In this document: piece after piece, positions 537-54,867 of the stretch
How positions within the stretch are numbered: position 1 is the stretch's first letter
Layout of the letters: each line of letters starts with the position of its first letter
From: Dipteris shenzhenensis
Taxonomy: Eukaryota
Length of the DNA stretch: 64,000 nt
Strand: one strand, 5' to 3'
NCBI GenBank assembly: GCA_047967505.1
Contig: CM106538.1
Notes under the pieces: model-generated
The model's input: the letters and a program-made list of their open reading frames with translations, nothing else
Told to the model about the DNA's origin: nothing
Database searches by the model: none
Translations under genes and position numbers: made by a program

Positions 537-540
537 AATT

Positions 541-7463: not shown

Positions 7464-7499
7464 TTTTTAAAATTTGTATTCTTTGAAATTTTATTATAG

Positions 7500-18222: not shown

Positions 18223-18235
18223 TGGTATCAGAGCC
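18223..18235 (+). promoter_or_regulatory. Primer-binding site complementary to the initiator tRNA-Met 3' end
   Basis: TGGTATCAGAGCC directly after the 5' LTR. Confidence 0.92.
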
Positions 18236-28935: not shown

Positions 28936-28961
28936 AACACTTATTTCATTAATTTTGGACT
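28936..28961 (+). repeat. Left TIR of copy B
   Basis: AACACTTATTTCATTAATTTTGGACT preceded by AATC. Confidence 0.92.
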
Positions 28962-29912: not shown

Positions 29913-29919
29913 AATGGCT

Positions 29920-30920: not shown

Positions 30921-31076
30921 ACTTTCAAAAAAGTAAAACCTAATGTATTGTAATGAATAAATATCATAAAATATCCTAATGTATTGCAACATTTAACATA
31001 AGTTTAAAAAACACTATCATTAATCAATACAAACAAGATAAAAATCTTCAAGGACTCATGTTTCTTTCTACATGTT

Positions 31077-34000
31077 TTACAACTGAATAGAGTCTGATGA
31101 GTCCTCTTGAGGCTGTGATTCTCTAAGAGTACATTGAGTCTCTACTTGTGTGGATGGTGTACATTGAGATTCTACTTCTGGTGCAATTGGGATAGACTTA
31201 ATCTCTTCCTCCTTTACAAGATGTGATGTTGTAGATGCACATTGAGTCTCCACTTCTTGTGTAGGGAGAATGCATTGAGTCTCTAATTCAAGTGTAGACT
31301 GTAATGCTTCTACTTGAGGCTGTGATACAGAAGGAGACTGAATTGTCTCTTCTTTTTCTTTGGCTCCCTCAGGTTCTTCATTGAGTCCATCATGTTGTTT
31401 CCCAATGGTAGCAGTTAGATAGTGAACAGTCTTAGCCACAAAATCTTGTAGCTCGAGCTTGGTATATGCTTCTATTGAGACATGTTCAAAAATTTCATTG
31501 AGATACAACATGAAGTTGTAGGCAATTCTCCACCCACTACTAAACATGTCTTTCTGCTCCACTGCGAGGCGTGTCTGGAAATTTGGTTGGTCTTGATGCT
31601 CCCTGATTTTCATAATCGCAGAAACTAACTTGTTTGCAAACCTGTCCATCATGACATATGACAAAGTGAATTTGTGTAGTAAATAGTAAGATGCATGTTC
31701 ATAATGATATGATAAAAGAACACTTACCTGAACACCCCGTGAAAGCCTGTAAATGAGTTGACAAACCAACAATGGTTGTCATCAAGATCCCATACTATCA
31801 GGCTCCAATGTGAACTACATCACCAATAAAGAGCGATAAGATTTATCACAATATTAAGTATTAATTGACACAATATTATAAATAAGAGAGTAAAAGAAAG
31901 ATTGAGACCATACTTACTTCTCATAGTATGGCATAAAGACAACTAGTATGCCATCCAAGTCTAAAGGTTGTAGAATTGAACAAACATCATCTACTGTCTT
32001 CTTGGTATCACTAAGTACAGCTGAAAGAAGAGAATCGAGCATACAGACGTGATTCTGTACTGATCTAGGAAAGTGAGATATAACCGTACTACTGCAGCAA
32101 TAAATAAACAAATGTTAGAAGCAGATTGAATCAAATGATTGAAGTATCAAGCCAAGAGATGTTCATATCAAACCTGAGGATGGCCATCATGACTTTGTCA
32201 TTAGCCTCTTTCAAAGGGTCAGAGAGGATTGTAACTTCCTCACTACCAAAAGTCAAAACACGAGGTTGCTTGCTAATGATGACCCTAACCTCAGAAGAGC
32301 TCCCCATTTCGTCCAATATAGCGGTTACATTAGGACAACTTATGGGTGTAGCAACCAATGTTTCCTCTGAATGCTCCACCACGTTATTAATAAATGCCTT
32401 AATGATAGATGACATAAATGCATATAGATGCAAGTCTGTATATGTCGACAATGAGGTTTCATCGCCTCTCAAATTAAAAATTTGAGCAAGGAGCAGTTAT
32501 ATCTGACTCTCCACCCACAACTGTGGTCATCATTCTGCTTCGCTGCAGGGCATGTTACATACTCTATTTGATCTTCCAAGTCACCCTCCATTTGCATAAG
32601 TGCATCTATAGCACCTACCAACTTTCGAGCAGATCTACACATCAAAATAGAAAACATAAATGAATGTGCGCATTGCATAGGATGCATCTCATTGACATAA
32701 TTATGACACAAGTAGGTTATACTTACTCTGACACACTGCCATGGATAGATGCTATTGAATTGACAAAGAAGCATTGCTTGGCTAAGATGTCCACAATTAC
32801 CAAGCTCCAATGCAAGCTGCATTATCAATTAAGAATAATTATTATTTGATATAATCCTCCACAATGTAAGAGATAAGCTAGGTAGGGATTGATACTCACT
32901 CCTCGTGATATGCAGTAAAGATAACTCGCGCCGCAGTCAAATCAATAGGTTGCAACCACTTAAAAACATCATCTATGGTCTTCTGCTTATTGCTAAGTAC
33001 ACTAGAAACAAGAGGATCGACCATATATGCACATCTTTGTATATATAAGGGAAGCTGTTGTAAAACCATACTGCAATAAAAAGAAAAGAATATTAGTTCA
33101 TTTGATCTAATGGAAATACAAAAGCATAAAGTCAGTAAAAAGTTTGTGTCAAACCTGAGGATGGCTATTATGACCTTGTCATTAACCTCTTTCTTGAAGT
33201 TTACGAGGATTGAAATGTCCTATTCATCGAATCGAAAAGTAAGAGGTTGTTCTCGAACTTGAAACCTAACTTGAAATGACTTCTCCATTTGCTGCAAGGT
33301 ATGATTATTTCTAGAGTCATCCGATGGATAGCCAGAGTAGCTTTGCTTTCTTGAGATGAGCTTTCTATATTCTCTACTCCAGCTATGCCCTCCTCATCCT
33401 CCTCCTCTCCCTTCTCCTATAAAAGGATAAAATAATTATGAGATTCAAAATTTTAAATTAATTATAAATTTAAAAAGACCTTTAAATGAATAAAGAAAAT
33501 TAAACATAAGTTTTCATACCTCTACATATCTTCGTGGTCTTTTTATGTAACCTTCAGAGGCAAGGTCAGTGTCATATCCATCTTCTTCTGCTTCCTTGCT
33601 ATCGCTGGTGTCCTCACTATTATATCCAGAGCTTTGATCATTTTCATCATCTTTCTTGCTCTCATCATACATGATCATCTCTATGTCAGCATCCTCTTCA
33701 TGTGAGATCGGACCTTTCTTATCAAACTTTATTGTGAGAGAAGCCACGGTATCAAGGTATTCCAAGCAAGCAAGGCTCTCAATAATATTTACATTGTGTC
33801 CTTTTCTAATAAGAGCTTCAAACAGATGTCCCATTCGACACAATGTGACTTCCCATCCGGACGGTAGCAAAAATTCCATCATACTAATTAAAAGATCAGC
33901 ACTTTTTGCTGGCCTTTCATAGTGATTTGCGTTGCGATGGAGGGGACTTGGATCTTCATGCTCTTCCAGCAGTAGTTGCAATCTCTTTGCATTCCCTCTT

Positions 34001-36909
34001 ATATTGTTTTGTAAGGAGTGATCATTGTAAGGGCTCTTCATGCACAAGAAAAAGGTTTCTAGACTCTGTATCTTGAGACCGCATTCTCTCTTGTCCCTTT
34101 TTCTTGAGTATATGCCATTGTAAATCTTAAGCTCATTGCCATATTGTTTTTCTAGGGTAGCAGACATTTGTTCCTTGTCATCTTTATCAGCAAATATGAC
34201 TATATTGCATTGTCCCACTCTACCAATGGTGGTATGTAATATTCTGTCAAGGAGTTGACGAATGTCATCCGGTGATATTTCATAGACAAAGAAAAGCTGA
34301 GGTCTCTCCCAAGCAGTGTCGTCGGACAAAAATTCACTCAATGAAACTCCCTTGCACTCAACACTCTTTCCAGACTCTGAAATGATTTCATGTATGAAAA
34401 AAAAGCCCTTGTTCAAAGTTTTTTCTTTTCTGAGAGTGTGCTTATTGATGACTTTTTGTGCATATGCATACACATTTTCCGGAATGTCACTTCTCATAGA
34501 GGGAGTAATTTCAGATCCATCATCTTCTACCTTCACCCATTTATGCGCCCAAGCCTTCTGTTTAGCTGACGGTAAAGCTGATGCCATCTGCCTCACAATG
34601 TTATGATCAATTTTACATTGGCTAATTGGAATATTTTTTTCTCCCAATAAATATTCAATTGCACTCTTTACTGCATCACGCTTGACCTGTTGGATGATGC
34701 AATCTTCCATGCAATGATCTTTATCCTTTTTGCCAAAAAACCATTCTTTGGACATTAATTTCTCTGCAGCAAGACTTGCGTATTTGTCTGGTAGGTTTCT
34801 TAAAGGCCTCCACTTTTGAGCTGTCATCTCTTTTTTCTCAATCTTCTTTGCCTTCTCTTTAATCAATGATGGAGCCTCATATGTGACATCTCCTTTCTCA
34901 CATGCAAGACACACGTCTTTGATCTGATGAAAAACTTCATCACTACGGAAAAGTATGCTTGTGTAGTCTTGATACCTATCCCTTACTGTCTTAAAGCTTG
35001 TAATCACCTCTGCTCTTTCCTGCTTTCCCCTTGGTACAATGGCACTCAAGCATGTGTAGAAGTCAACAAGATTATCCGCTTCCACTTTAGTTGCAGTTCT
35101 TTTGAGAGTGGTCAAAGGAGAATTAAAAGTTTTCCATATGGTCCTAGCTTTGAGCAACATCTCTGAAGTGGAGGTGATTTTTCGTAGTGCATAAATGTCA
35201 TGATTAAGTCTTTCCGACTCAATCAAATATTTTTTCTCGTTCTTGAAGATACAAATGCATGCAGAATAGTAGTGAAATTGAGGCACACTCGCGAAGGTTT
35301 GATAAGTAATTTCTCCTTTCTTGTATGCATCTCTAGAGTGCTCATTACAAGCATAGGCATAGTGCTGACCATCTATTGCCTCAAATGTACAATGAGCTAA
35401 GAAATTTCTCTTGGCATCCCTTATATGTCGTTCTGGATCATTCACTGAACTCTGTCCTTCTTGAAGTTAGGGAACTTGTTTTCCGAGGAACTTAGTGAAT
35501 TGCATCTCAAAATCCATAGGCTGAGAGAAATTGATGGATTGACTATAATCTCCCATGACTGGCCAAAATGTTCTTGGACGGAGTACCAAATTAGAAAAAA
35601 CTGGTTTTTTTCCATCAATCAAAGCCTGAAAAATCTTTTCAGCATAGATTGTATCTAAGGTCCTGCTATTGGTGAAGACACTTGCTTTGACCACTGTTGA
35701 AGCATGTATAACTTGAGTCTTCTGGCCCCATATATATCCTGGATCCTCATCTGTCACAGCCTCATTCAAGCGAAGATTTAGATTCTTCATTGATAACATT
35801 TCTGCTTCTAGATCTGACTCCATTTCAAGACCCTCCGCATCCTCTTCATGTTCTTCCTCTTCTCTTCTTTGCACTTTCTTTGTATATGAACGACCTCTTT
35901 TTCCAGTTATAGGACTTGGAACTGTAGCTCGTGAAGTACTTGCCTTTTGCATTTGACGTCGATATTTATTTTTTAGGGGCTCAATGTGAACTGCTTTAGA
36001 TCGCCCTACTTCTTCTTCTATTGCCTCAACTTCAGGTATACTTAAGGGCTTCACTTGTTCTGTTATTCCATCAACTTCATGAGTTACACCATCTAAGTGA
36101 GTAATACCATGAACAAGAGATGTGTGTGCATGTCCTGTCTTATCTGATGCATGTCGTGTCTCACTCAATTCAATTTCTGTCTGAGATGCATGTGCATGTC
36201 CGGTCTCCACCAATTCAATTCCTGTCTCAGATGTAGATCCCTTGTAAGCATCCACGTGTACAAGACCCTCATCCATTGCTACAATGTGTTCTGTCTCATC
36301 CACTCCACTTCCTCTCTCATTTGTATTACCATGAACCAGGTCTACATGGCGTGTCTCATCACTTCCTTTCTCATGTGTGGATTCTTGCACCTTAGGTCCC
36401 TCCAATGAAGTTGAACCTTGTTCGATGACACCCTGAAAGTATTCAAGGATAATCTTTGACTGCATTTTTCTTGCTTCCTCAATGGGAAATTCCTCTCACA
36501 CATGTTGAAGAATCTCCAATGCAGGAACCAATTCAGGAAATCTAGGTGCTTTTGGCGGCGGCATCACAAAGTGCATTGCATCTTTCTTAGAAAGAAGAAA
36601 CGATCTGTTGCTCATTCTTGACTTTGTGTAAATCATCATTGTACTGCTGTCTTTTTCAATTTTTATTCCTACTAAGGTGCCCCCTTGAATCAAATTGCTC
36701 TTTGAGAAAGATACATTTGATGCCCACTCATCTTTCTCCAACTCTCTCTTTGTCATCACTAGAATGAGATTTCCTTTACTTAAGACCAAGAACCATGCTT
36801 TCTTTGTTGTGTCAACAACTGTCCAGTTTGTGAAGTCCTTTGGGGCATAAATTCTTCCATTGTATTTCAGTGTCATACCATTGACAAATGCTGTAGCCTC
36901 AAGATCCAT
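31077..36909 (-). pseudogene. Spliced cargo gene, about 1700 codons: ParB/Srx-like domain, degenerate N4/N6-MTase-like region, two Ulp1/C48 protease domains
   Basis: ORFs 36496-36924, 35467-36465 and 33514-35445 are one frame separated by single stops (copy A has TGG at the first). Seven GT-AG introns follow (33519-33417, 33154-33071, 32899-32817, 32726-32635, 32173-32092, 31917-31815, 31727-31642), joining exons with HWSLVIVD, QNDDHSCG, HWSLIVWD and QKDMFSSG. Two frameshifts (about 33330 and 32490) and one further stop are required. Confidence 0.8.
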
Positions 36910-38679
36910 CCTGTATTCAAGCACAACACAAATTTTAAGTACTTTGACAAACTACAATTACTTTGAAATATCAAAAGTACAATGAGTCCCATTAATACAC
37001 CTCAAGTTTTTATTCTTCCCAATCGTATAAGTATCAATTTCATGCTTTGGGAATAGCCTCAAAGGCTTTACAAGGCTTAGAGCATAAATGCTTTGGGAAT
37101 AGCCTAAAAGGCTTTACAAGGCTTAGAGCATAAATGTGAAAAAAAATAAGGATTTACAATGATCTCTGAATACAAATTTGAAGTCTGTCATATATAAGTG
37201 CAAAATGCTCTGTCAACTCCCGCAACTGATATAAGTGTAAAATGCTCTGTCAACTTCCACAACTGTAATCTGTCATGTCCACTGATACAACTTTCAATCA
37301 TCTTGAAAGTTTAAAAACCTTAATCGTTGCTTAAATGGTAGGGTTGTTGTGACTGTGAAACCGAATGTGAACGAATGGACTGACTCCGATTAGGAACTAG
37401 TCGGGAAATAGTCGGGAAATTTTGAGCATGGCTTTGATTGGTTTTTTTGGAGTTCTCTCCTCTAAGGACAAACTAATCTATGCTAATCTAGACTACACCA
37501 ACCGTCGAAACGAAGAAAAGCAAGAAATAATTTCTTTTCCATTGTTCTTTTTAATATCCTTAGGTTGCGAATTAAAAGCAAAAAATAATCTATTTTCCAT
37601 TATTCTTTTTAATACACTAAGGTTGTGAGTTTAAAAAAGATAAAATTTATATTTTCAAAAACTAATTTACTTACAACTCATAAGAATTGAACATTCACAT
37701 TAATAAGAAGTTAAAATCTTAATAAATTTGAATTTAAATAATAAAAACTATAAAGTAGTTTAACTTAAAGTTTATGAAAAAATAACGTAAAATAAAGAAA
37801 ATAAGACTTAAAATTAAAAATTTAATATTTACCTAGAAGAATATATTAATTCTCCCTAAAAAGAAATAAATTAAAGTAATAATAACGAATGTAAGTTAAA
37901 CTACTTTTAAAATTTTAATTTAAAATGTAATAAAATTAAAATTATACTTTTTATATTCCAAAACAAAATGCATTATAGTCTAAATTAAACTAGTAAATTG
38001 AAAATGAAAGTGAAACTCATTTTAAATTCAAAAACAAAGAAAAATTTAAAATTCAAGTTTCTACAAGTTTTGCTTTTAGCATACATTTGTCTTTTCACAT
38101 CCACGCGTTTGTCTTTTCAAACACAAGGTTGTCTTTTATCACAATTTTCAAGTTTTCACATGTTTATCTTTTCAAACACAAGGATTCATAGTTTAAAAAA
38201 AGGCGGGAAATTTGAAATTCTAGTTTCCACACGTTTCTCTTTTCAAACACCAAGGTTTATAGTTTTGTTTGTTTAAGTTTCGACTAAATCACACACCAAT
38301 CTCCTCTAATATGCCTCATTGATCGTAGCTCCCAAATTCTTCCATCAAAACATCTCTCCTTTATCTCTTCTTGATCGTCGCCCACTCATTTTTTCTCCTC
38401 ATTGGTAAGATTTTCTATCTCGATCGTACTTTCTCTTGTGCCCTTCCTCTCTAAATTTTCATCAAACACCAAGGTTTATAGTTTTGTTTGTTTAAGTTTC
38501 GACTAAATCACACACCAATCTCCTCTCATATGCCTCATTGATCGTAGCTCCTAAATTCTTCCATCAAAACATCTCTCCTTTATCTTTTCTCAATCGTCGC
38601 CCACTCATTTCTCCTCTTCATTGGTAAGATTTTCTATCTTGATCGTACTTTCTCTTGTGTCCTCCCTCTCTAAATTTTC

Positions 38680-38957
38680 ATCTCTCGTCCATCTCTCTCA
38701 CTCTTCTCTCTCTCTCTTTCCTCTCCGCTCTAGTCTACGTTTCCTCTCATCTTAGTCTACTCTCTCCCCTCCTCTTCATTTCCCCTCTCTCTCTCTCTCT
38801 CCCACTCTCTCCTCACCTTTTCTCTCTCTCTCACTTGCGCTCCCCACTCTCTCTCTCACTTGCTGCGGCCTCCCCCCTCTCTCTCTCTCCCCTCCCCTCT
38901 CTCTCTCTCCCCCCCTCTCTCCCTCTCGCTGCCGCAGCAGCGGCCTCCCCCCCTCTC

Positions 38958-38988
<31 letters not shown>

Positions 38989-40890
38989 CCCCCTCCCTCT
39001 CTTTCGCTGCCGCGGCAGCGGCCCCCCCTCTCTCTCTCTCTCTCCCCCCTCTCTCTCGCTACCACGCCTCCCCCCCTTCTCTCTCTCTCCTCCCCTTCTC
39101 TCTTGCTACCACGGGAGCGGCCCCCCCTCTCTCTCTCTCCCTCCCCCTCTCTCTCGCTGCCGCGCCCCCCCTTCTCTCTCCCCCCCCTCCTCTCTCGCTA
39201 CCGCGGCAGCGGCCCCCCCTCCCCTTCTCTCTCTGCCGCCCCCCTCCTCTCCCCCCCTTCTCTCTCTCTCCCCCCTTCTCTCTCACTGCCACGGCAGTGG
39301 CCCCCCCCCTTCTCTCTCTCTCCCTCCCCCTCTCTCTCGCTGCCACGCCCCCCTCCTCTCTCTCTCCCCCCCTCCCCCCCCTCCTCTCCCCCCCCCTTCT
39401 CTCTCTCTCCCCCCCCTTCTCTCTCGTTGCCGCGGCAGCGGCCCCCCCTTCTCTCTCTCTCCCTCCCCCTCTCTCTCGTTGCCGCGCCCCCCACCTCTCT
39501 CTCTCCCCCCCTCCTCTCTCACAGCCGCGGCAGCGGCCCCCTCTCTCTCTCTCCCCTCCCCTCCCCTCCCTCTCTCCCCCCCCTCCCTCTCCCCCCCTCT
39601 CTCCGCTGCCGCGACAGCGGCCTCCCCCCCTCTCTCTCTCTCCTCCCCCCTTTCTCTCCCCCCCTCCTCTCTCGCTGCCGTGGCAGCGGCCCCCCCTCCT
39701 CTCTCTCTCTCCCTCCCCCTCTCTCTCGCTGCCGCATCCCCCCCCTTCTCTCTCTCCCTCCCCTCCTCTCTCGCTGCCGCGGCAGCGGCCCCCCCTCTCT
39801 CTCTCCCCTCCCCTCCCCTCCCTCTCCCCCCTCTCTCTCTCTCCCCCCCTCTCTCTCGCTGCCCCCCCTTCTCTCTCTCCCCCCCCTCCTCTCTCGCTGC
39901 CGCGGCAGCGGCCCCCCCTCTCTCTCTCTCTCCCTCCCCTCTGTCTCACTGCCGCGCCCCCCTTCTCTCTCTCCCCCCCTCCTCTCTCGTTGCCGCGGCA
40001 GCCCCCCCTTCTCTCTCTCTCCCCCCCCTCCTCTCTCGCTGCTGCGACAGCGGCCCCCCCTCTCTCTCCCTCTCCCCCCCCTCCCTCCACTGCCACGGTA
40101 GCGGCCTCCCCCCCCTCTCTCTCTCTCCCCCCCCCTCTCTCTCCCCCCCTCTCTCGCGTTGCCACGCCCCCCCTTCTCTCTCTCCCCCCCTCTCCTCTTT
40201 CGTTGCCGTGGCAGCGGCCCCCCCCTTCTCTCCCTCTCCCCCCCCCCTCCTCTCTCGCTGCCGCGGCAGCTGCACCCCCTCTCTCTCTCTCCCTCCCCCT
40301 CTCTCTCGCTGCCGTGCCCCCTCCCCTTCTCTCTCCCCCCCTCCTCTCTCGCTGTCGCGGCAGCGGCCCTCCCCTCTCTCTCTCCCCTCCCCTCCCCTCC
40401 CTCTCCCCCCCCTCTCTCCGCTGCCGCGGCAGCGGCCTCCCCCCCCTTTCTCTCGTTGCCCCCCCTTCTCTCTCTCCCCCCTCTCCTCCTCTCTCGCTGC
40501 CGCGGCAGCGGCCCCCCCCTCTCTCTCTCTCCCTCCCCCTCTCTCTCGCTGCCGCGCCCCCCCTCCTCTCTGGCTGCCGCCTCTCTCTCTCCCCTCCCCT
40601 CCCTCCCCCCCCCTCCCTCTCCTCCCCTCTCTCCGCTGCCGCGGTAGCGGCCTCCCCCCCTCTCTCTCTCTCCCCCCCCTCGCGGCTTCCCCCCTCTCTC
40701 CCCTCTCTTCCCCCCCCCTCCCCCTTCTCTCCCCTCTCCCTTTCTCTCCCCTCTCTTTCCCCCTCCCTTCTCTCCTCTCTCTCCCTCTCTCTTTCTCTCT
40801 CTCTCTTTTGCTGCCGAGGCAGCAAGACTCTCTCTCTTATAATCTCTCTCTAAAAGTCTTTCCTTCACTTTTCTCTCTCTAAGTTCTCTC
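38680..40890 (-). repeat. CT/C-rich array with the 16-bp palindrome (copy B counterpart of 7500-9900)
   Basis: (CT)n and C-runs with recurring CGCTGCCGCGGCAGCGGC. Confidence 0.93.
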
Positions 40891-41159
40891 TCTATAATAA
40901 AATTTCAAAGAATACAAATTTTAAAAAAAGTACCTGGAAAAAAGTTGAAATCTATGCTTGTGCTTTGTTGTGCTTGCTTTTGCTCTTCCTCCTCTTTTTG
41001 CTTCTCCTCTTGCTCTTCCTTGTTGAAATGAGAGAAACAATGAGAGAAGGAGAGTATATATAAGAAAAACTAGGGTTTTAAGTGCTTCTCTCTCTTGGTC
41101 CTTCTATAACATTATCTCCTCTCCCATTGGCCTCTCTATTAGATTATCTTCTCTCTCTC

Positions 41160-42085
41160 TCCCGCCCACTCCCGTCCTCCCACCCCATTCCCACTCCCAC
41201 CCCCATCCTCCCACCCCACCTCCCCCATTCTCACTCCCACGCCCACGCCCATTCTTTCACCTTCCCCATTCCCACTCCCTCTCCCACTCCCATCCTCCCA
41301 CTCCACCCCTCCCACTCCCACCCTCACCCCCACCTCCCCCATTCCCACTCCCACTCCCACTCCCACTCCCATTCTCCCACCCACTCCCATCCTCCCACCT
41401 CCACCTCTCACTCCCACTCCCATCCTCCCACCCCCACCCCTCCCCCCCCATTCCCACTCCCATTCCCACTCCCACTCCCATTCTCCCACCCTTATCCTCC
41501 CACCTCACCCCTCCCACTCCCATCCTCCCACTCCCTCTCCCACTCCCACTCCCATTTTCCCACCCCCCCACCTCCCCCATTCCCACTCCCTCTCCCACTC
41601 CCACTCCCATTTTCCCACCCCCCCCACCTCCCCCATTCCCACTCCCTCCCCCATCCTCCCACCCCACCCCTCCCACTTCCACCCCCACCTCCCCCATTCC
41701 CACTCCCATCCTCCCACCTCACCCCTCCCACTTCCACCCCCACCTCCCCCATTCCCACTCCCTCTCCCACTCCCATCCTCCCACTCCCACTCCCCACCCC
41801 TCCCACTCCCACTCCCATCCTCCCACCCTCACTCCACCCCCACCTCCCCCATTCCCACTCCCTCTCCCACTCCCACTCCCATTCTCCCACCCCCACCCCC
41901 ACCTCCCCCATTCCCACTCCCTCTCCCACTCCCACTCCCATCCTCCCACCCCCACCCCCACCCCCACCCCCACCGCCCCCATTCCCACTCCCTCTCCCAC
42001 TCTCCCTTTCTCCCACTACCACCCTCCCACACTCCCTTTCTCCACTTTCCCACTCTCCCTTTCTCCCACTACCACCCTCCCAACT
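41160..42085 (-). repeat. (ACTCCC)n array, G-rich on the minus strand (copy B)
   Basis: Reverse-complement counterpart of 6273-7240. Confidence 0.93.
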
Positions 42086-42159
42086 ATCAATTCCACTATT
42101 ACTTATGAATTCTAATTAAAACTATTACTTAAATAAATGATATTACTTGAAAACACTCA

Positions 42160-43140
42160 TAGGATTTAAGGTTTAGGATTTCGTGGTTTGGGTTTAGGAT
42201 TTGGGGTTTGGTGAGTTAAGGTTTAGGGTTTAGGGTTTAGGGTTTGTGAGTAAGGAATTAGGGTTTGTGAGTTAGGGTTAGGGTTTAGGGTTTGTAAGTT
42301 AGGGTTTAGGGTTTGGTGGTTTGGATTTAGGATTTGGGGGTAGGGTTTAGGGTTTAAGATTTGGGAGTTAGGGTTTAGGGTTAGGGTTTAGAGTTTGGTG
42401 GTTTGGGTTTAGGGGGTAGGGTTTAGGGTTTAGGGTTTAGGGGTTAGGGTTTAGGATTTAGGGTTTAGGGTTTGGGGGTTAGGGTTTAGGGTTTAGGGTT
42501 TGGGGGTTAGGGTTTAGGGTTTGGGAGTTAGAGTTTAAGGTTTAGGGTTTAGGGTTTGGGGTTTAGGGTTTAGGGTTTAGGGTTTAGGGTTTGGGAGTTA
42601 GGGATTAGGGTTTGGGAGTTAGGGTTTAGGGTTTGGGGGTTAGGGTTTAGAGTTTAGGGTTTGGGGGTTAGGGTTTAGGGTTTAGGGTTTAGGGTTTAGG
42701 GTTTAGGAGTTAGGGTTTAGGGTTTAGGGTTTGGGAGTTAGGGTTTAGGGTTTGGGGGTTAGGGTGGGTTTGGGGGTTAGGGTTAAGGGTTTAGGGTTTA
42801 GGGTTTAGGAGTTAGGGTTTAGGGTTTAGGGTTTAGGGTTTGGGAGTTAGGGTTTAGGGTTTGGGAATTAGGGTTTAGGGTTTGGGGGTTAGAATTTAGG
42901 GTTTAGGGTTTAGGGTTTGGGAGTTAGGGTTTGGGGTCTGGGGGTTAGGGTTTAGGGTTTAGGGTTTGGGGGTTAGGGTTTAGGGTTTAGGGTTTGGGAG
43001 TTAGGGTTTAGGGCTTAGGGTTTAGGGTTGTTATTGGTTAGGGTTGAGGGTTGAGGGTTCAGGGTTTAGGGTTGTTTTGGTTTACGGTTTAGGGTTTAGG
43101 GTTTAGGGTTGTTATTGGTTTACGGTTGTTATTGGTTAGT
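42160..43140 (+). repeat. Interstitial telomeric (TTTAGGG)n array, internal to copy B
   Basis: About 1 kb of GGGTTTA with TTTGGGAGTTAGGG and TTTGGGGGTTAGGG variants. Confidence 0.97.
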
Positions 43141-43265
43141 GTGTAATTAAATTTTCAAACAAGTTCTAGATTTTTAAATCATTAATAAAGTAGATTATTG
43201 AGAAGAGACTAATGTTCTTTATAATGGTTGTTACAGCTTGTTTGCAAAGGAAACTCACAAAGGAG

Positions 43266-45931
43266 ATGGCTACAAAATTTATTCCGGGGATGGAGGTGAT
43301 TTTATGTTTCAAAAGAGAAGTAGTTGCATTTGCTACAATCCATGAAAGTGATCCAAATTCTATTTGTCACTCTAGAAGACTTGGCGAAGATAAGGTGGCG
43401 GTTATCGTATCAAGGATTCTTAGTGCACATGTTGAGCTAAAGCATAAGTGTGGGGATATGGAAATCCTTGGAGATGTTATGCCCTATAATACTTCCAACA
43501 AAGCATTTATTACATGGGACAGAGATGAGACTTATCCAACACATGTCATCAGGAATACAAAGTGCATATCTTTGGATTTTAGAGTGGGAGATATTTTACA
43601 AATGTTATCATTTTCAAATAAGTATGTAGCAGAAGGTCAAGTCTTGGGATTTGAACAAGTTGAACACTGGACATTTGCGCAGATGAGAATTCAAAAAGTT
43701 ACTGATGATGGTATGGATGATAACTCAATGTCATTGGATGGTCCCTACTATGAGGTAGGTAAGGATTTGAGATGGAGCATGCAATTTTTAAAGATTGGAA
43801 AGACTCGGCATGTGGTTTTTAATGATAAACATAATGTATACTACAACATCAAAGAATTGAAAGAATATGCCAATGTACCAAGCTCTATTCCTTCAGAGAT
43901 GGATGATTCCAATGCACTCAACTATAGCACTGACGTCTTATCAGAAGTCGATGAGTTCATTGGTACCGAGAAAGAAAAATATTTCACAAGTGATGCCTTA
44001 TCCGGGGTGGATGAGTTCATGCACATTGAGAAGCAAAGATGTCAAAAGTGTTATATTTTCAAGCATGGATGGCTTCATGGATACTGATAAAGTACTTGGA
44101 GTCAAAGCAGGTAACTATGGAATTATGGAAATCATGCACGATAGTATAATGAGTGATGTTATCTCTGGAGTAGAGGAGTTTTGAGACTATGGAGTTATGA
44201 AATCCATAGAAAGTGCATCAATGAGCGATGTTCTCTCAGGAATAGATGAGTTTGAAGATCATTCTGGACACTCTATCACCACTGACTATGGAGTTATGAA
44301 ATCCATAGAAAGTGCATCAATGAGTGATGTTCTCTCAGGAATAGATGAGTTTGAAGATCATTCGGGACACTCTAATGCCATTGTGACAAGTGGTTCTACG
44401 ATTGTATCAAAAGTAGGGATGAAGCTATTTCTCACCCAAATGAGTACATGTGCATTATTGTAGATGGTATGGATCAAAATACAACAACATTACCTCGATT
44501 CGTTAACACTCCACCTAAGCTACAAGGCAAATACTTTTTAAAGACACATCTATGTGGAGTGTTAGTGCACGGATTTAAGTTTTTTGCAGACATATGGATT
44601 GATTCCTTGCATCTACACGATAGCAATCAAGTTGTAACATCCGTTATGAAGGCAATTCACAATGTACATGCAGAAAAAGGTCGCCTACCAGCAACTTTGA
44701 GAGTACAAGCAGACAATTGTGGACGACAGAATAAGAATGTACTCTTCTTTGCATTTTGCTCAATGCTAATCGCTCATAGAATCTTCAATGAGATTGAAGT
44801 TGGGTTTTTGTTGGTTGGGCACACACATGAGGATATCGATCAGGTATTTAGCACAGTTTCAAGAGAACTAAAACACAAGGACATGGAGACAATGGATGAC
44901 TTGATAAGAAAATGTGGGAGGCAAGTTGGTGGCCGTAAGGAAGGAACAATATGCTCAATGGTTGAGAGGATGTATGATTGGAAGAGCTTTATTCTACCTT
45001 TCATACAAAAAGGTGGTGATGCCCTGATTGGTCATAGCGCTCCACACTATTTTCGATTTTTCTTTAAGGATGAAAAACCAGTGATGCAATGGCAACACTA
45101 TTCTGTTGATACAAAATGGGAACCTGAAGAACCTTACTCTCTCTTAACTTCAATCCCGAGCAAAGAAATGCATCCAAATGGGCTCCTATAAAAGAATTCA
45201 GCGAGAAATCCAAAGGTGAAATAGAAGGCTTAAAAGCTTTTATTGCATACAAAGAGGAAATGCTCCGGAGATTTCCTGATTGGAAGCCCTCTTGGAAGGA
45301 ACACACTACTGTTGTAATTAGCAAGACCTACCAATTGATAAAGGACCTTGCAAAAATGCGAGAAGATGATATTAAGGCAGAACGGCCTTTATTTTGGCCA
45401 AATGTTGGTAATGACTTGCGTCCAGCATGTGGTCTCTTTGAAAATGAGTTTGAATCGTTGCTCCCACGTCCATATTGTGGACCCATGAAGAGAGAGTTTA
45501 TGCCACAAATAGACATAGATGTCCATTGTTTTGTTGCAGTTCGACCATCGGATGATGAACATGAGAATGTGAAGTTTTGGGTTGCGAAAGTAGTTGACGT
45601 GAGCATGGATGACCGGGGGAGAGCTAGAACATTTACAGCGGTATGGTATGAGCCAAGGGGCAGGAAGGAGAACCAAGATAACAATACATTGTATAGTAGT
45701 TGTTTGAAAAAGGAATGGGTCCCAAACCATGAAGCAATTTCAAGACTTTCCACAGAGACAGTCATAGTATCTTGGAAATCAAGGTCAAAGAAAACAAAGA
45801 AGCACATGGGGTATGATGTAGAAGACAAAATAAAATTACCGCAACCAATTATTACGCACATTACAGAGTTCACAAAGATGCTCGCCCGGGAGGAAGTAGA
45901 AGGAGATAGTGCAAATGAAGAATGCCCATGA
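43266..45931 (+). pseudogene. Disabled copy of the Sola-like transposase
   Basis: Near-identical to 1316-5026 but with a 5-bp deletion (about 44030), a TGA (about 44182), a deletion of about 1.04 kb at about 44422 (equivalent to copy A 2826-3864) and a 1-bp deletion (about 45178). Confidence 0.92.
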
Positions 45932-46598
45932 TAACACCATTCAAATATCGAGAAAGAGTGAAGGTGGTGGTGGTTGTCAGATGAGAGTGAATGAAGATGG
46001 CACCCAAGCGACAAGTGACGACAAAAAGGACATTCTGAACAAGCAAATGTTTGGATCGCTCATTTCTGTGATCATGATAGAAAAGGACATTCAAACAAGC
46101 AAATGTTTGGATCGCCCATTTGTACTAAACTCATTGCAAAGGAAAAATTAAATTATTGAAAAGGCCACAGGAGATCCTTTGTACAAAGACTCATCCAGAG
46201 CAATATTTGTTGTAAAACTTATGACATGATAATGTAAAATTGCAAGCATAGCTATTGCTATTTTTTGGAGTACAAAAGAGGCTTCCATCATGTCTCATGT
46301 CTATATAAACCTTTTAATTTCGTTGTGAATCCTCAATAGCATGGTTTTTCATGGATTTAAACTAATAACTCGGATTTTTTATTTTAAGAATATGATTCTT
46401 ATAAACAAGAAATACAAATTTAGGATTTAATAGTAGTTTTTGCATTATTTGTACAACATTGTAGAGAGATATTTTGAAATGTCTTATGTGAAAATGATAG
46501 TGCCAGAAAGTAAACTTTTGATTCTCGAATGACAGTTTCATAAAGTAAACTTTTCATTTGGGAAGGATTTTAAGGAATAGTCCAAAAGTAGACATATG

Positions 46599-46624
46599 AG
46601 TCCAAAATTAATGAAATAAGTGTT
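46599..46624 (-). repeat. Right TIR of copy B
   Basis: AGTCCAAAATTAATGAAATAAGTGTT followed by AATC. Confidence 0.92.
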
Positions 46625-46628
46625 AATC

Positions 46629-47360
46629 GGATACCATCCAACAACCAGAATGCAGTAGCAAAGAGCAGCTACATCATAATGAGGAAGAAGATGTCTCTAA
46701 TGTGCATAGCAACACTCTAAAATAGAGGAAGGAGACCATCTCAAAGGCAAAAGGCACAGAGCAGGATGATAATTTCTTCAAAGAGCTATTAAAGTCCAAG
46801 GTGCAAATCACATTGGACCAACTATTAAATCTTATACCAGCATTCAAGGAGAAATTGTTTCAAGGTTTGGAAGGAGACAACCAACCCAAGGCACCAGTGA
46901 CTATTATGGAAGACGACGAAGAGGAGTCTCTAGAAATCTATAAATCAATAATAGAATAGGTAAATTAAAGATTTCCCACAATTAATGTATAATACAAAAG
47001 GTAATAAATACCAGATGTCCTGATTGATGGAGGATAAGGTGTTAACATATTATCTGAGGAGTTATTCAAGAAATTTTGCTACAATGAGTTGGCTCCAGCA
47101 CCATTCCAAGTGAGAATGGCTGATCAAAGAAGAATCCAACCACTTGGTATTCTCAGAGGCCAGGAAATTAGCATTTGGCGATTGAGTTGCACTGTTACAT
47201 TTATTGTACTCAAAATGGAAGAGAAAGATAGTTCCTACTCCATGTTATTAGGTAGACCTTGGCTGAGAGCTGCAAGAGTGAAACAAGATTGGGGAGCTAA
47301 GAGAATCACAATAAAAAAAGGTAAGAAAAAGTTTAAGATTTGCCAAACATCTAAAAGAAG
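46629..47360 (+). pseudogene. Ty3/Gypsy-like gag-aspartic protease remnant (right flank of the TIR element)
   Basis: PDVLIDGG*GVNILSEE...APFQVRMADQRRIQPLG...YSMLLGRPWLRAARVKQDWG. Confidence 0.8.
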
Positions 47361-50300
47361 TTTAAGGAAATCTTTAAGGATTTTGGACTTGCTATAAACT
47401 GAGAAGTTGTAGATTTTCCTACAAGATACATTTCTTATGTTTATACTTTTTGCATCGGAGCTACCGTGCAAAAGCTATTGGCTGGTTTTGGGATGCCCTG
47501 AGGTCACTTACAGCAGAACATGTATTTGTGAGTGACAGTGTGGCTGTTGTCATTGCAATTGATATTTTTGGGGCTTGAGTTTGGTACATTGGTGCAGTGT
47601 ATCCTGGTTGTTCTGTCATCCACTGTGATGGCTTCGGCGTCAGAGAATGCATTGTTTAACATTGAGAAGTTGGATGGTACAAACTTCTATTGGAAGGAGC
47701 AAATCTACAATGTTTTGGTGCAGAAGAAGCAAGTAAAGCCTATAAAACACAAAGGCATAAAGCCAGAGGATTGGGAAGATAATGAAGATTGGAAGCAATT
47801 GGATGAGCTTGCACGCTCCACGATCATGCTCACACTTTCAAAATTGGTGTATTTCAATGTGAAAGATACTGAAGGTGGTGCCCAAGGTGTGTGGACAAAG
47901 TTGCATGATCTTTATGAGAAACAGAGTGCCGCTTGTCAAGTGTATTAGCTGAAGAAACTCATAGATCTTCTCATGAAAGAAGGGACTTCAATGTCTAGCC
48001 ATTTAAATGAGTTTAACACAATTTTTAGTCAACTTTCAGCTCATAAAATTACCTTTGATGACTCAGTTAAGGCAATGTTCTTATTGGTCACTCTTCCTGA
48101 AAGGTTGGACACTTTTAGGACTGCTATAAGCAATTCACAGCCCGTGCAGGAGGCCTGACAAGTAGTGATGTTGAGAGTAGCCTTCTCACTAAGGAGGTAA
48201 GTAGAAAGAACAATGCTGGAACTAAAAGTTCAAGTGCTCTCAATGTGAGAGGGAGGTCATATTCCAGGGGAAAATACCACGACAGAAATACAAGCAAATC
48301 TAGAGGAAAATCCCATGCCAAAAAGGATTTGGAATGCTTCTACTGTGGGAAGAAAGGCCATTTCAAAAAGGATTTCTACAAATGGAAGAATGATAAAGGC
48401 AAAGGCAAAGGTAATGTGTAGCCCAAGAAGGAAGAGAAATCCACGGTCAATATACAAGAAGTGAATGCCATAAGAAACAATAGTGATGAGGGTGACATTC
48501 TTTATGCCTCTATGTTTGAGCATGCTTTTCTTATGACTAGTGATGATGCATTGTCACAGAATTGGATACTAGACTCAGGAGCATCTTTCCATGTCACTCC
48601 ACATAGGGAGTGGTTTAGCATTTATGATGCAGGAAGGAAAGGAACTGTGAGACTTGGAAATGATTATCCATGTGACATTGTTGGAGTGGGAGATATCCAC
48701 TTTTCTCTTCCTAATGGTTCTATATTTGTACTCAAGAATGTTAGGCATGTTCCAAATATGAAAAAGAACTTGATAAGTACGGGACAGCTTGATGATGATG
48801 GCTATCATGTGTTTTTTGGCAACAATACATGGAAAATTAGCAAAGGGTCACTTGTGATTGCTAGATGTTCCAAGCATGGAACATTGTACTCAATGCAGGT
48901 GTCAGGCATAAGAGATAATGTAATCAATGTGACCGAGCAGCCATCCATCTCTTTGTGGCATCGTCGGTTGGGACACATGAGCATGACAGGAATGAAGATA
49001 CTTTTTGGTTTGCAGTATGTTCCCGTGTTTAATTTTTTAGATTTTAGCATGTGTGAGCATTACATGTATGGGAAGCAAACACGGCCTTCATAAAAAATCT
49101 TTGGGCAAGAAGAGGCTTGAACCATTGGAGTTAGTTCACAGTGATGTGTGTGGACCTATGCTTACTGTCTCATTGGGTGGTGCTTCTTACTTTGCTACTT
49201 TCATTGATGATGCTACATGGAAGGTGTGGGTCTATCCTCTTCGGAAGAAGAGTGATGTCTTTGATGCATTTCAAAAGTTCTTAGCATTTGCTAAAAATCA
49301 GTCAGGCAAGAATCTCAAATGCTTGCGCACTGATAATGGAGGAGAGCATACCTCTCACGCATTTAAAAATTTTTGTGAGCTATGTGGCATCAAGCAAGAG
49401 TTGACTACTCCTGAGAATCCTTCTCAGAATGGGGTTGCTAAGAAGATGAATAGAACAATTCAAGAAAGGAATATAAGCATGCTTTCTAATGCCAGTCTAC
49501 CTCATGGCTTTTGGGTTGAGTCTATCAAGACAGCAGTAAATCTTATCAATGGATCGCCTAGCAAGCCACTAGATGGGAAAGTGCCAGAAGAGGTTTGGTC
49601 AGGCAAGCCACCATCTTGTGGGCATCTTCGTGTATTTGGTTGTGAAGCTTATGTTCATATCTCTAAGGAAAAATGCAGCAAGCTTGATCCAAAGTCAAGG
49701 AAGTGCATTTTTCTTGGATATGGTGATTCAGGCGAGATGGGATACCGATTGTGGGATCCATAAGCCAAGAAGATAGTACGCAGCCATCATATTATCTTTA
49801 ATGAGGATAAGATGCACAAGAAGCCAGAAAATACTATTGAGATACGTAGAGTGGTGTTTCAAGAGGATGGACAACCACCATATGAGAGGCATACACAACC
49901 TATTCCACATGATAAAGGGCATGGACAACCCATAGATCGTGAGGTGGGAGAGCCACATCTAGGTGGACAACCTCAGGTTATGCTGGAAAATCAGTTGGGA
50001 TAGCAAGATGCTCATGGTGAGCAAGTGTTGAGACATTCCACTAGAGTCTCACGACCTCCACAGAGATATGCTCCATCTCTAGATTATGTCATGTTGACAG
50101 ATTGTGGTGAGCCTTCATGCTTTGAGGATGCTATGCCTAGGAATGACAAGCATAAGTGGGAAAAGGCTATGCAGTCATAGATGGATTCTTTGATGAAGAA
50201 TGCTACTTGGGATTTGGTCTATTTGCCCAAAGGAAAGCATGCATTGCCATGCAAATGGGTTTACAAGCTGAAGATGTCTCTAGCAGATGCATTACCTAAG

Positions 50301-50375
50301 TATAAGGCAAGGTTGGTAACCAAGGGTTTTAAGCAGGAGAAGGGTATTGAATTTGATGAGATCTTTTCCTCAGTG
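47360..50375 (+). mobile_element. Ty1/copia family 3 fragment (related to family 2): leader, gag, PR, IN and start of RT; no LTR seen
   Basis: MASASENALFNIEKLDGTNF from 47628, WILDSGASFH, HSDVCGP, LRTDNGGE and CKWVYKLK, with many stops. Ends at DEIFSSV. Left boundary approximate. Confidence 0.88.
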
Positions 50376-53085
50376 CTGTGACCTTCATTTTGTAGACCCA
50401 TTTACATGGCAATGCTTTCTTTCCATGTGGCAAAGAAACCAAGTCCCAAGTCTTATTCTTCATAAGTGAACTCATCTCTGATTGCATAGCATACTTCCAC
50501 TTGCGTTGATCCTCACGCATCATAGCCTCTCTGTAGCAAGAAGGCTCCCCGCAATCAGTAAGCATCACATAGTCTATCCCTGGAACAAACCTATCAGGCG
50601 GTCTAGACACTCTAGATGATCTTCTCAAGGGCATTTCAGCTTGCTGTCCCACTTGCATATCAGCCACATTTGGCTCATCATTTCCACCAATAGATGATCC
50701 ATCATCTACCCTTGATTGTATACCTGTGGGAGTACTTGGTTGTACCATTTCTTGCACATTTGGTGCATGGACAGCTTGCTGCCTATCAACATATGCAGGT
50801 GGATTCACATCCTGGAAAGTGATTCTCCTCATTTCCACATCCCTCATGGGTGCCTTATGCATCTTCTTCTCATTGAAGACCACATCATGGCTGCGTATGA
50901 TCTTCTTTGCTTCTGGATCCCAGAGACGATAGCCCATCTCTCCACTTTCACCATAACCTAGAAAGATGCATTTCCTAGACTTAGGATCTAGCTTCTTTCG
51001 AAGCTCTTTTGGCACATGTGCATATGCCTCACACCCAAATATACGCAAATGAGAGTAAGAGGGCTTCTTGCCACTCCATGCCTCTTCAGGAATACCACCA
51101 TCCAAACTCTTACTAGGTGATCTATTGATCACATGCACTGCAGTCTTCATTGCCTCAGCCCAAAAACCACCAGAAAGACTTGCATTGGAAAGCATGCATT
51201 GCAACCTTTCTTGAATGGTACAATTCATCTTTTCTGCAACTGGATTTTGCTCTGGAGTACGAGGGGATGTGAGCTCCCTCTTAATCCCATGTGTATCACA
51301 GAAATGCTGAAAGTCATGAGAGAGATACTCTCCACCATTGTCAGTCCGTAGGCATTTAAGCATTCTAGTTGACTGATTCTCAACCAAGGCCAGCCATTTC
51401 TGAAATACCTGGAACACATCACTCTTCCGAGCTATAGCATAAGCCCACACTTTCCTAGTTGCATCATCAATGAATGTCACATAGTATTCAGCCCCGCCTA
51501 ATGACCGTGTAGGCATGGGACCACATACGTCTGAATGCACCAAATCAAGCATTTCAAACTCTTTCTTTCCCCTTCTTTTATGGGCTGATTTAGTCTGCTT
51601 CCCATAGAGACAGTGCTCACAAAATTCAAAATCAGAGAAACTCAAATGCGGTACATAACCCAAACGGCATAAGAGTTTCATTCCATTCTGGCTCATGTGC
51701 CCCAACCTGCAATGCCACAAAAAAGTGCTTGGCTGCTCGGTTATTGCAACAACATGATCAAATACCCCTGATACATGTAAGGGATACAAAGTCCCACACT
51801 TGGCACCCCTGGCCAAAAGCATAGAGCCCTTCTGAATTTTCCAACTCTGAAAGCCAAAAGTGGTGTGAAAACCAGCATCATCTAGTTGACCCACTGAAAT
51901 AAGACTCTTGGTCAGCTTAGGCACATGTCTCACATGTTTCAAAACAAATGCAGACCCATTTGCAAAAGAAAACTTTATGTCACCTGCTCCCACTATGTCA
52001 CATGCATAGTCATTTCCAAGATGCACACAACCTGTCTTTCCACTATCATAAGTGGAGAACCATTCCCTATGGGGAGTAACATGGAATGAAGCACCAGAAT
52101 CCAAAATCCAATCCTGGTAATATGCATCATCTGAAGTGGTAAGCAACTCTGCAGATAAACTATACATGAAGAGAACATCATTGTCACTATCACGTGTGAC
52201 TGCATTGATCTCCTCGATCTTCACTTTTCCTTTGTCCTCCCTTGGACTCTCTTCCTTTTGATTTGCACCCCAATTTGCATTCTTTTTCTTATCCTTTTGC
52301 TCTCTTTTCAGCTTGTAGCAATCCTTTTTCATATGGGCCTTCTTGCCACAATGGTAACACTCAATGTTCCGTGCCCTAGATTTGCTACGTGACTTCCCTC
52401 TTTCTTGGGACTTCCCCCTGAACTGTGATCTGCCCCTTTGCACATTTAAGGCTGCATCCTGCTTGTTGCCATCCATAGACTTCCGTCTAATCTCCTCGGC
52501 CAACAAGCTACCCACAACATCATCAAATTTTAGTACTCCACTAGGTGCAGAGTTACTAACAGCTGTACGGAAGGTATCCCATGAGGATGGCAATGAACAT
52601 AAGAGAAATATTGCCTTAGTCTCCGCATCAAAATTCATCTTCTGAGCCTGAAGCTGGCTGAAAATAATATTGAATTCATTCAAGTGAAAAGCAATGGAGA
52701 CCCCTTCCTTCATCCTCAGCTCAAACAACCTCTTCATGAAGTAAACTTTATTAGAGGCAGTTTCCTTCTCATAAGTGGCACACAGTTTCTTCCACAAATC
52801 TTCCGTAGTCTGCTCATTTACTACTGTGAAATAAACTGACTCTGCAAGATGAAGTCTAATAGTAGACTTTGCTAATGCATCCAACTCATTCCAATCATCC
52901 TCAGACATATTTGCAGGCTTAGCTTCAATCCCTGCCAAGGGTTTAATCTGCTTCTTTTGAATAAGCACATCCCTTATTTGTTCTTTCCACAAAGAAAAGT
53001 TTGTCCCATCAAACTTTTTAATGCTGAAAAACTCCTTTTCAGGCATGGAAGAGGATGCCATGATGCAAATAAAGCAAAATCCCAA
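50329..53085 (-). pseudogene. gag-pol: Copia gag-protease-integrase ORF, C-terminally truncated (likely start MASSS at 53061)
   Basis: Open 918-aa frame with CYHCGKKAHMKKDC, WILDSGAS, HSDVCGP and RTDNGGEY. The last residues derive from the junction. Confidence 0.9.
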
Positions 53086-54670
53086 ATGCTAGTGCCTGCA
53101 AGAGAGAATCACACCAAATACCAAGTGCACCCAAATGTGTATGCCACAATAGAGTGAAATATCACCAAAACTCAAAGCTCAAAGCATCAAAAGATGCATC
53201 TGACTCATGTGCATATACTATGCATCCATATGAGCAAATCTGGCCCAAAAGGAAATGCCAATAAGTGCCAAATGACTCAAGCATAAACACCGTCCACTGG
53301 CATATGCATCAATAATATCTCATCCAAGAGAGCATAGCACTATCAGTGCATCACTTGCAATGTGTCAAAGCTGTCCCTCAACATAAAATAGCATCCATGT
53401 GCAAAGCGTCCATAAAAAATAGCATCCCACAAGGCAATTTGGGCCTATCAGCGCATCCAACAAGGACCGCAATGCATCCAAATGGCCTATAAATCATCCA
53501 CTGCAACCCAATGCATACCACGAATGAGTGCACACTGCTCAAACTGCAACCAGAGTGATCTGCATAAGGTATGCTCAAGAAATCATAGTCCCACGGTAAT
53601 GAGCGCTACTGAAAATAGAACCTGAGATGCCTCAAAACATGGGCGCCATTGCATAATCGGACTCAGCAAGAAAATATGCAAATATCTCTCTTCTGCCAGA
53701 ACTCCAAAATCCCAACCGATGAGTGAGAAACGGGAGTCAATACTTATCCACTGCCATGTGGCATAAATCTAAGGTTTCAAAACCTTAGAATGAAAAATGC
53801 ATAACAGAGAGACGAAATCGAATACACAGAGATTTATAACTCTGAAAATCCTCCACCGAATCACGCAAGAACTGATAGGTAGGGGTTTTTGGGCGTCCGG
53901 AATGCAATGGGACAGACGGTTTTGGAAACCGTGGTCTCAATCACTGGGTCCAACACATGGACTGAAAAACGTTTTTTGAAACAGAGCTATCTGTAAACTC
54001 CACCGGAGTGCGAATGATGAGCAACATAGAAGTTTTAGGACTCCTGAGTCCACCGGAACTAACAGATCTGCAAATGGTTGCTCCAAACTTGAGTTCCAAC
54101 ACCCGGGCAAAAAACGCAGAAACTGACACTGTGAGTCAGAAATCCACTGAAATGATCCCGGATTCAAGAATAAAGGTGTTTCCAGGCTCCTGAAGTAATG
54201 TGGATACCAAAAGCAAGCAATAGTTGCCTCTACAAGTCAATACGGAGTCTCTGTCATCGAACGGAACAGGGAAAAGCTCAAAAAACGACTTTTTCTTTGA
54301 AAGCTCTTAACAGGCTCTCAAAACCACTTCGTAAAGCCAAAGTGACTTTTCCAAAGGTTCCTCCAAGGTCTCTGCACACTTGGATGCAAGTAAAGTCACC
54401 CACAAAGCTTCCCACAGAGCTTCTCCTTCCTCCCACAGAGCTGCTGAGCTTCCAGCATTCACGCACGCTCAGCTAGATCACCCGGGCTCTGATACCAGTT
54501 GAGAGTGCTCTCAACGGAAGCAAGAAGGGAAGAAGGAGAGAGAGAGATAGAGAGCCACACAAGTTTCGGTGGGTGCAGAACCACCCTAATCTTCTTTTTC
54601 ATTCATTTATATATGTGTTTGAGTATTGTACATAACCGGGGTTAAGGCACAGTGACCTTTAACCCCCACA
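50376..54670 (-). mobile_element. Ty1/copia family 2, copy A: 5' LTR (54500-54670), PBS, gag-pol truncated in RT
   Basis: LTR homologous to 54868-55040, PBS (reverse complement GCTCTGATACCA at 54486-54497), long leader, and a 918-aa ORF broken at CKWVYKMKVT. Confidence 0.93.
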
Positions 54671-54867
54671 GGGGGTGCATATTCTTCAAGCGGAACTTCA
54701 AAAGAAACTGTCTTCTACTCAAATGCTGGAAGAGGTAGAGGCAGAGGTAGAGGAGGCCGATCTGCAGGCCGTGGTAGAAATCAGAATATGCAGCAAACTC
54801 AAGAAAACCAGTCCTATGCAGGAGGACGTGGTAACTCTAGAGGCAGGGGGAGCTAAAGAGGCCGTGG

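Follow-up and report, generated by a model that had tools for sequence, protein, structure and literature searches.

Interstitial telomeric sequences (ITSs) are fragile sites and Polycomb targets whose origins are debated. Among those of plants, the Arabidopsis blocks ITR-1R/ITR-4L, annotated as ATREP18, consist of degenerate TTTAGGG repeats with clustered teloboxes at non-terminal positions, and likewise degenerate arrays were found in the 64,000-nucleotide stretch of Dipteris shenzhenensis DNA analysed here (assembly GCA_047967505.1, contig CM106538.1; hereafter the window). ATREP18, as described in bioRxiv 10.1101/2020.11.28.402172, lacks open reading frames (ORFs) and transposable-element features and forms large tandem pericentromeric blocks, whereas the arrays in the window measure ~1 kb and reside inside an element bounded by terminal inverted repeats (TIRs) and a target site duplication (TSD), beside an ORF of 1236 codons for a predicted transposase of the Pfam family DUF7869 (PF25273). 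We read the array as an internal segment of this 17.7-kb DUF7869 transposon, namely an old minisatellite that was maintained by replication slippage and may serve as a cis-regulatory platform, and we assign this composite reading a probability of roughly 0.55.

Mobile elements have been proposed to transpose telomeric repeats and so create heterochromatic ITSs, with support from the frequent occurrence of mobile elements at the flanks of ITSs (PMC6410037). Such support consists mostly of adjacency, whereas the repeat described here is internal cargo whose movement is documented by two copies. Oxytricha TBE1, Tetrahymena Tel-1, Paramecium telomeric Helitrons and the rotifer Terminons/Athena are also mobile elements joined to telomere repeats (PMC13085455, PMC6431247), but in these the repeats lie at or outside the element termini and derive from insertion into, or attachment to, telomeres. 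In the present transposon they are internal, at 3.5 kb and 13.2 kb from the two ends, and the termini (AACACTTATTTC..., beginning AACAC) are flanked by AATC or AATT, with no telomere unit at 541, 28936 or 46624.

Tandem arrays in internal or subterminal position are known from DNA transposons such as CACTA elements. The position upstream of the transposase is similar in these and in the metagenomic DUF7869 relatives described below, but the repeated unit is here a host-type telomere repeat rather than an element-specific one. With the other DUF7869 elements the transposon shares the Pfam match, a DDE-like triad, an RNase-H-like core, TIRs and a 4-bp TSD (AATC here, CATT in the relative L053); among them, it is unusually large (17.7 kb) and carries an orphan second gene as well as kilobase arrays. 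Sola elements reportedly also make 4-bp TSDs, an observation attributed to Bao et al. in 2009, and the Sola superfamily is possible kin by this single trait.

A keyword search of the open-access literature, supplements excluded, found no DNA transposon with an internal kilobase array of telomere type beside its transposase, and a literature search found no paper mentioning DUF7869. The present analysis provides a first anatomy of a DUF7869 element, comprising its termini, 4-bp TSD, DDE core and BAH-like tail, as well as an explicit cargo relation between an interstitial telomeric array and a transposon, within TIR/TSD bounds and in two transposed copies. If the array were conserved across the family, it would offer a tractable case of a transposon that borrows a binding site of host telomere proteins to control its transposase.

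Transposon boundaries and copies

Two copies of the transposon were delimited in the window:

28936-46624, plus strand: complete right copy of the transposon, 17,689 bp, with perfect TIRs and TSD
541-12614, minus strand: left copy in inverted orientation, with the same terminal base and TIR at 541

The right copy is bounded by perfect 26-bp TIRs (AACACTTATTTCATTAATTTTGGACT; 28936-28961 and 46599-46624) and flanked by a perfect 4-bp TSD, AATC (28932-28935 and 46625-46628), so that 28936-46624 has the TIRs and TSD of a cut-and-paste transposon. The subterminal motif TTTTGGACT occurs twice at each of its ends. A 20-mer taken from the outer end of the arm had one further match, at 28933, against none expected from 100 shuffles. 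Earlier readings of the duplication as TTAA or as a 2-bp TSD were dropped, as the AACAC terminus shared with the relative L006 yields the perfect 4-bp AATC.

The inverted arms span 538-12614 and 46627-36368. The left copy is flanked at 541 by AATT, unrelated to the flank of the right copy, and an organism E contig from a public run (X8) aligns from exactly 541, with more contig letters beyond the aligned part. At its other side, the left copy is broken at 12614/12615, inside gene 2 of the transposon, by a 5'-truncated copia element (gag from 12628). A TIR partner was sought at the inner arm boundary (12614/36368) and none was found, this boundary being the truncated copia junction.

These ends bear on the possibility that the array entered one copy as a one-off event and that the pair reflects a local inverted segmental duplication or an assembly artefact. 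Such an origin would suit two copies that lie head-to-head within 46 kb and have diverged by only ~1%. However, both arms end exactly at the terminal base that was validated by the TIR partner and the perfect TSD, while their flanks are unrelated, and the arms are set apart by an indel of 1038 bp, by frame breaks and by 30 indels within the array. In addition, the independent run X2, annotated as 'algae metagenome', yielded near-identical contigs with 0-7 differences per 400-677 bp, some of which cover the sequence that the right copy has lost. As both arms stop at the validated terminus in different flanks, they are transposition products, and local duplication or misassembly is very improbable.

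The array was copied by transposition at least once. It lies between the perfect TIRs and the TSD, as the initial reading made from the sequence alone had proposed in placing it inside the transposon, and with high confidence it belongs to the mobile unit. The outcome which that sequence-only reading had named as speaking against itself, a one-off insertion followed by a local duplication, is rejected in its second part by the identical terminal base in unrelated flanks and by the collinearity of the two arrays.

The telomere-like arrays

The arrays and their unique borders were mapped as follows:

42160-43140, plus strand: right telomere-like array, ~1 kb, with the G-strand on the transposase sense strand
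5155-6195, minus strand: left telomere-like array, aligning collinearly with the right one; its G-strand is the minus strand
43141-43265, plus strand: AT-rich leader of 125 bp between the array and the MATKF ATG (left equivalent, 5027-5151)
42083-42159, unstranded: AT-rich spacer of 77 bp and 21% GC on the far side of the array (left equivalent, 6196-6272)

Tandem Repeats Finder reported the right array at 42160-43110 (period 7, 136 copies, 76% matches, score 1011, unit TAGGGTT) and the left array at 5165-6195 (period 7, 146 copies, 77% matches, score 1207, unit AACCCTA), and degenerate 17-bp edge units stretch them to 43140 and 5155, respectively. The MATKF ATG is at 43266 on the plus strand in the right copy and at 5026 on the minus strand in the left one. 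The leader differs between copies by three mismatches (2.4%) and the spacer by a single base, the latter indicating that the array borders are common to both. The sequence-only reading was therefore borne out in that degenerate (TTTAGGG)n arrays of ~1 kb lie just upstream of the transposase in both copies, each ends 125 bp before the MATKF ATG, and their unique borders are the same.

Inside the arrays, perfect TTTAGGG units number 51 (right) and 58 (left), the longest perfect run is of four units, and C accounts for less than 1% of the G-strand. Recurrent blocks of TTTGGGAG or TTTGGGGG plus TTAGGG plus (TTTAGGG)n build higher-order units of 21, 28 and 35 bp. The telobox octamer occurs 74 times as AAACCCTA and 68 times as TAGGGTTT within the arrays, compared with five times in the other ~62 kb of the window. 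Outside the main array, each copy has a lone octamer, at the mirror sites 7323 and 41071, in the unique stretch that separates its two C-rich (G-rich) arrays.

Global alignment of the right and left arrays was collinear, with 1083 matches, 45 mismatches (~4%) and 30 gaps, most of which were 7, 14 or 21 bp long, whereas the unique parts of the two element copies differ by 0.95-1.3%. By this alignment, the two arrays are slipped descendants of one ancestral array whose order was not reshuffled. The earlier claim of a different internal repeat order holds insofar as the copies differ through slippage in unit number, but not as to a rearranged order. Given their collinearity, the array was already present in the common ancestor, is older than the separation of the two copies (~1% divergence) and was carried along by the element.

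The arrays did not have the make-up of a true telomere or a telomerase-added tract, as judged from the four-unit limit on perfect runs and from the unique sequence common to both copies on each side; from these features, the array is not telomerase-fresh. It would instead be an old, degenerate, telomere-like minisatellite that began as a captured piece of interstitial telomeric DNA or expanded from telobox-type units, and whose upkeep and changes in length would be due to replication slippage or unequal exchange rather than to telomerase acting in place. One could also picture a former telomere or a healed break that was later buried, in which case the 'element' would be a chimera joined through the array. 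The G-strands do run away from the middle of the inverted pair, the orientation found at genuine chromosome ends, but this polarity follows from the inverted orientation of the two copies; moreover, element sequence common to both copies flanks the array inside a single TIR/TSD-bounded unit, and long perfect tracts are absent. We consider such a chromosome-end relic extremely improbable.

The leader raised a further alternative, in which the array would be transcribed from the AT-rich spacer as an RNA resembling telomeric repeat-containing RNA (TERRA) and spliced out of the transposase mRNA as an intron of the 5' untranslated region. The TTACAG acceptor noted between array and ATG by the sequence-only reading was located at 43231-43236, within the acceptor-like TTGTTACAG (43228-43236; 30 bp before the ATG). 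It could be joined to a donor-like GTGAGT at 42211, conserved in the intact left copy at 6144, with transcription starting near a TAAATAA at 42130 in the spacer; splicing would also remove both in-frame ATGs upstream of the start (43212 and 43224). Yet the intact copy retains only one of four donor-like hexamers, chance alone would produce such short motifs in sequence of this kind, and a TATAAT at 43220 together with the two in-frame ATGs fits a start downstream of the array. The intron is thus unlikely.

The transposase

The two transposase genes are in different states of preservation:

1319-5026, minus strand: intact, uninterrupted transposase ORF of the left copy (P0001), 1236 codons
43266-45931, plus strand: defective transposase gene of the right copy, with a 1038-bp deletion and frame breaks

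The deletion corresponds to left 2827-3864, or about residues 388-733, and is joined at 44422. Pfam DUF7869 matched P0001 at residues 768-961 with 172.4 bits (cut-off 26) and was matched in all 13 aligned members, in which the motifs DGMDQ, ADNC..NKN and GHTHEDID are invariant. An AlphaFold model of the transposase (predicted local distance difference test score of 71) was compared with known structures. The modelled core superposed on the cores of the SETMAR/Mos1 transposase and of retroviral integrase with Z-scores of 9.0-9.4 and root-mean-square deviations of 2.9-3.3 Å over 140-169 residues, and Foldseek matched it to IstA, Mos1 and TnsB with E-values of 2e-4 to 9e-4. From sequence and model taken together, P0001 is classed as a DDE transposase with an RNase-H-like core whose acidic motifs form a DDE-like triad. 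As to its superfamily, a search through Pfam neighbours matched only DUF7869; an Atlas cluster in which 11% of members are DDE_Tnp_ISAZ013 scored 0.86 and is a lead only.

The C-terminus (1319-1774, ~150 residues; model residues ~584-682) is predicted to be an all-beta, BAH-like domain. Foldseek aligned it over ~90-160 columns with the BAH domains of EBS, AIPP3, DNMT1, ORC1 and polybromo (probability 0.97-1.00, E-values 0.016-0.05), the matched Arabidopsis EBS and AIPP3 structures having been solved with H3K27me3/H3K4me2 peptides. By sequence, a profile search of the PDB with the transposase gave a single, weak BAH match (E-value 1.4). W623 and Y624 (alignment numbering) of this domain are nearly invariant among relatives.

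A 99-bp tandem duplication (3913-4173 / 44185-44374) was further observed in the N-terminal half of the transposase, where it repeats the acidic motif ...SDVLSG.DEF...; one unit is missing from an organism E contig, which skips 99 nucleotides at 3903-4003.

Relatives and further copies

The nearest proteins among 5.8 billion reached 31% identity for those of similar length and 50% for shorter ones, the named ones coming from molluscs, a sea urchin, a hydrozoan and the liverwort Riccia. Atlas look-alikes of the transposase, and of the copia polyprotein of the window, were most often from Streptophyta, which gives a lead, and no more, to a probably streptophyte host. For comparison of gene surroundings, 80 metagenome loci encoding transposase relatives (23-37% identity) were used. 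L053 has long TIRs and a 4-bp duplication, CATT, whereas L006 has TIRs and the shared AACAC terminus with no clear TSD.

In 13 of the 80 relatives, tandem arrays of 41-105-bp units end ~170-1370 bp upstream of the first transposase ATG. The distances were measured on 20 loci chosen for long contigs or arrays, 13 of which had arrays, and upstream sequence at many of the remaining loci is too short for arrays to be judged:

L001, L003, L007, L008, L010, L013, L014, L016, L017, L019, L020, L024 and L026: relatives with upstream arrays, for example at L010:1648-2237 and L016:2541-3037

These arrays share a conserved palindromic core, TCGATAC..GTATCGA and variants, and the units that carry it are probably protein-binding sites of the DUF7869 family. 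An upstream tandem array looks like a family habit with a lineage-specific unit. As the relatives keep upstream arrays with a conserved core, this upstream slot is argued to be functional. In L024, a (TTAGGG)3 tract was observed at L024:2947-2964, just downstream of the 41-bp palindromic array, as the sole telomere-type tract in the 80 loci.

Public sequencing runs held further copies of the transposon. Besides its near-identical contigs, X2 contained others that were ~13% diverged, while parts of the element were found 2-4% diverged in organisms B and C (X3, X6) and 8-10% diverged, with internal deletions, in organism E. A 36-nucleotide stretch at 2408-2443, covering the DNC..NKN motif, had a summed contig depth of 28 to 322 in three runs, as opposed to ~7-20 nearby, and many contigs diverge on both of its sides. 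By these contigs, the runs with deep cover of 2408-2443 hold many diverged DUF7869 paralogues, and the transposon family is, on the same evidence, multi-copy and multi-species. Telomere-type contigs had enormous summed depth in all four public runs, with the depth of the 5127-5260 bin ranging from 733 to 55,390.

The divergent intergenic region and a regulatory reading of the array

On its far side, the array borders a region shared with a second gene:

33514-36951, minus strand: gene 2, a second long frame of 1146 codons with two internal stops, divergent from the transposase (left part, 12094-12614, plus strand)
38760-42082, unstranded: C-rich low-complexity arrays, namely CT/C-rich (38760-40810) and (CTCCCA)n (41160-42082) (left equivalents, 6270-7250 and 7570-9900)

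Gene 2 matched no Pfam family worth naming at E-values up to 10, and its 650-residue part has no detectable homologue; from these searches, it is classed as an orphan gene of the transposon. A palindrome-bearing 46-bp repeat is present twice just upstream of it (37042-37136). The 6.3 kb between gene 2 and the transposase comprise, in this order, unique DNA with small tandem repeats, the C/T-rich array, (CTCCCA)n, the 77-bp spacer, the telomere-like array and the leader. Embedded GCTGCCGCGGCAGCGG islands were observed in the kilobase (CTCCCA)n/(GGGAGT)n and C/T-rich (G/A-rich) arrays of both copies (38760-42082 and 6270-9900). At the spacer, the GC skew switches from -0.79 to +0.54, that is, from the C-rich arrays to the G-rich telomere-like array, so that the repeats upstream of either gene are G-rich on the sense strand of that gene.

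Within the 2.1 kb at 41160-43265, only eight CG and six CHG sites were counted, a scarcity that arises because the repeats are strand-asymmetric. It is the one sequence feature that favours the escape from DNA-methylation silencing suggested by the sequence-only reading. The observed/expected ratio of CpG was 0.34-0.47 in the genes of the element and 0.21 in the neighbouring copia, values taken here as the signature of CG methylation in this genome. Telobox repeats of Arabidopsis are bound by TRB Myb proteins that recruit Polycomb repressive complex 2 or activate genes (bioRxiv 10.1101/2020.11.28.402172, PMC11287191). The array would accordingly occupy the promoter-proximal end of a 6.3-kb divergent control region between the transposase gene and gene 2, in which its ~140 telobox-like units may together form a platform that regulates the transposase gene in cis. 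These units would be bound by telomere-repeat-binding Myb proteins of the host, and the ~2 kb before the transposase would be kept free of sites for maintenance DNA methylation.

Whether such a role was selected or the array is a tolerated presence was assessed separately. The competing explanation holds that the array is a neutral passenger, one of several low-complexity satellites grown by slippage in an unconstrained intergenic region, which travels without effect. Consistent with this, two other kilobase-scale arrays, (CTCCCA)n and the C/T-rich one, are found in the same region, and the telomere-like array evolves ~4 times faster than unique sequence and changes freely in length. On the other side, it lies within 71-125 bp of the transposase start, at an abrupt switch in strand polarity, and the relatives keep arrays at the analogous upstream position, with a palindromic core conserved across diverged families. 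A neutral passenger is, in our view, a quite possible explanation, and a selected regulatory role of the array is a tentative proposal, held at somewhat short of even odds.

Several observations weigh against our reading of the array as a cis-regulatory platform within the transposon. The scarcity of CG and CHG sites would appear automatically in any strand-asymmetric repeat, and the (CTCCCA)n and C/T-rich neighbours show that the region simply gathers low-complexity DNA. No TTTAGGG array of three or more units was present in any of the 80 distant-relative loci, L024 with its (TTAGGG)3 being the only one to come near, and all 13 array-bearing relatives are from one assembly series and may represent one host. 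The array itself was seen in only two copies, ~1% diverged, and could be private to a young sub-lineage. Among the contigs shown for the four public runs, none carried the leader/array junction of another copy; X3 had no cover of 4964-5126, and the longest listed organism E contig that reaches the region aligns only to 5028, at the ATG. An element-encoded telomere-binding Myb protein was also sought, with no Pfam Myb match and zero six-frame matches to a TRF-type signature.

In a bolder extension, the transposon would co-opt the chromatin of host telomeres: teloboxes would recruit Myb proteins and thereby Polycomb-type H3K27 methylation in place of CG/CHG methylation, the BAH-like domain of the transposase would read that state for self-regulation or target choice, and the family would seed fragile interstitial telomeric arrays. 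We regard this full scheme as improbable.

Surroundings of the transposon

A search for RNA genes such as telomerase RNA gave no Rfam match at the gathering score. At the outer edge of the left copy, a 100-codon open frame (236-538, plus strand) ends exactly at the insertion point; it contains ...GHGKSKHDG..., has no Pfam match and may be what is left of some other gene or mobile element that the insertion of the left copy disrupted. The remainder of the window is largely taken up by a Ty1/copia nest at 12615-24700 and 47000-64000. Its first part is a tandem copia pair, at 12615-18692, which starts with gag and has no 5' long terminal repeat, and from 18693 to ~24700. Further copia copies were found at 47038-49760, 50332-55000 (minus strand), 55097-60746 (minus strand) and 60732-64000.

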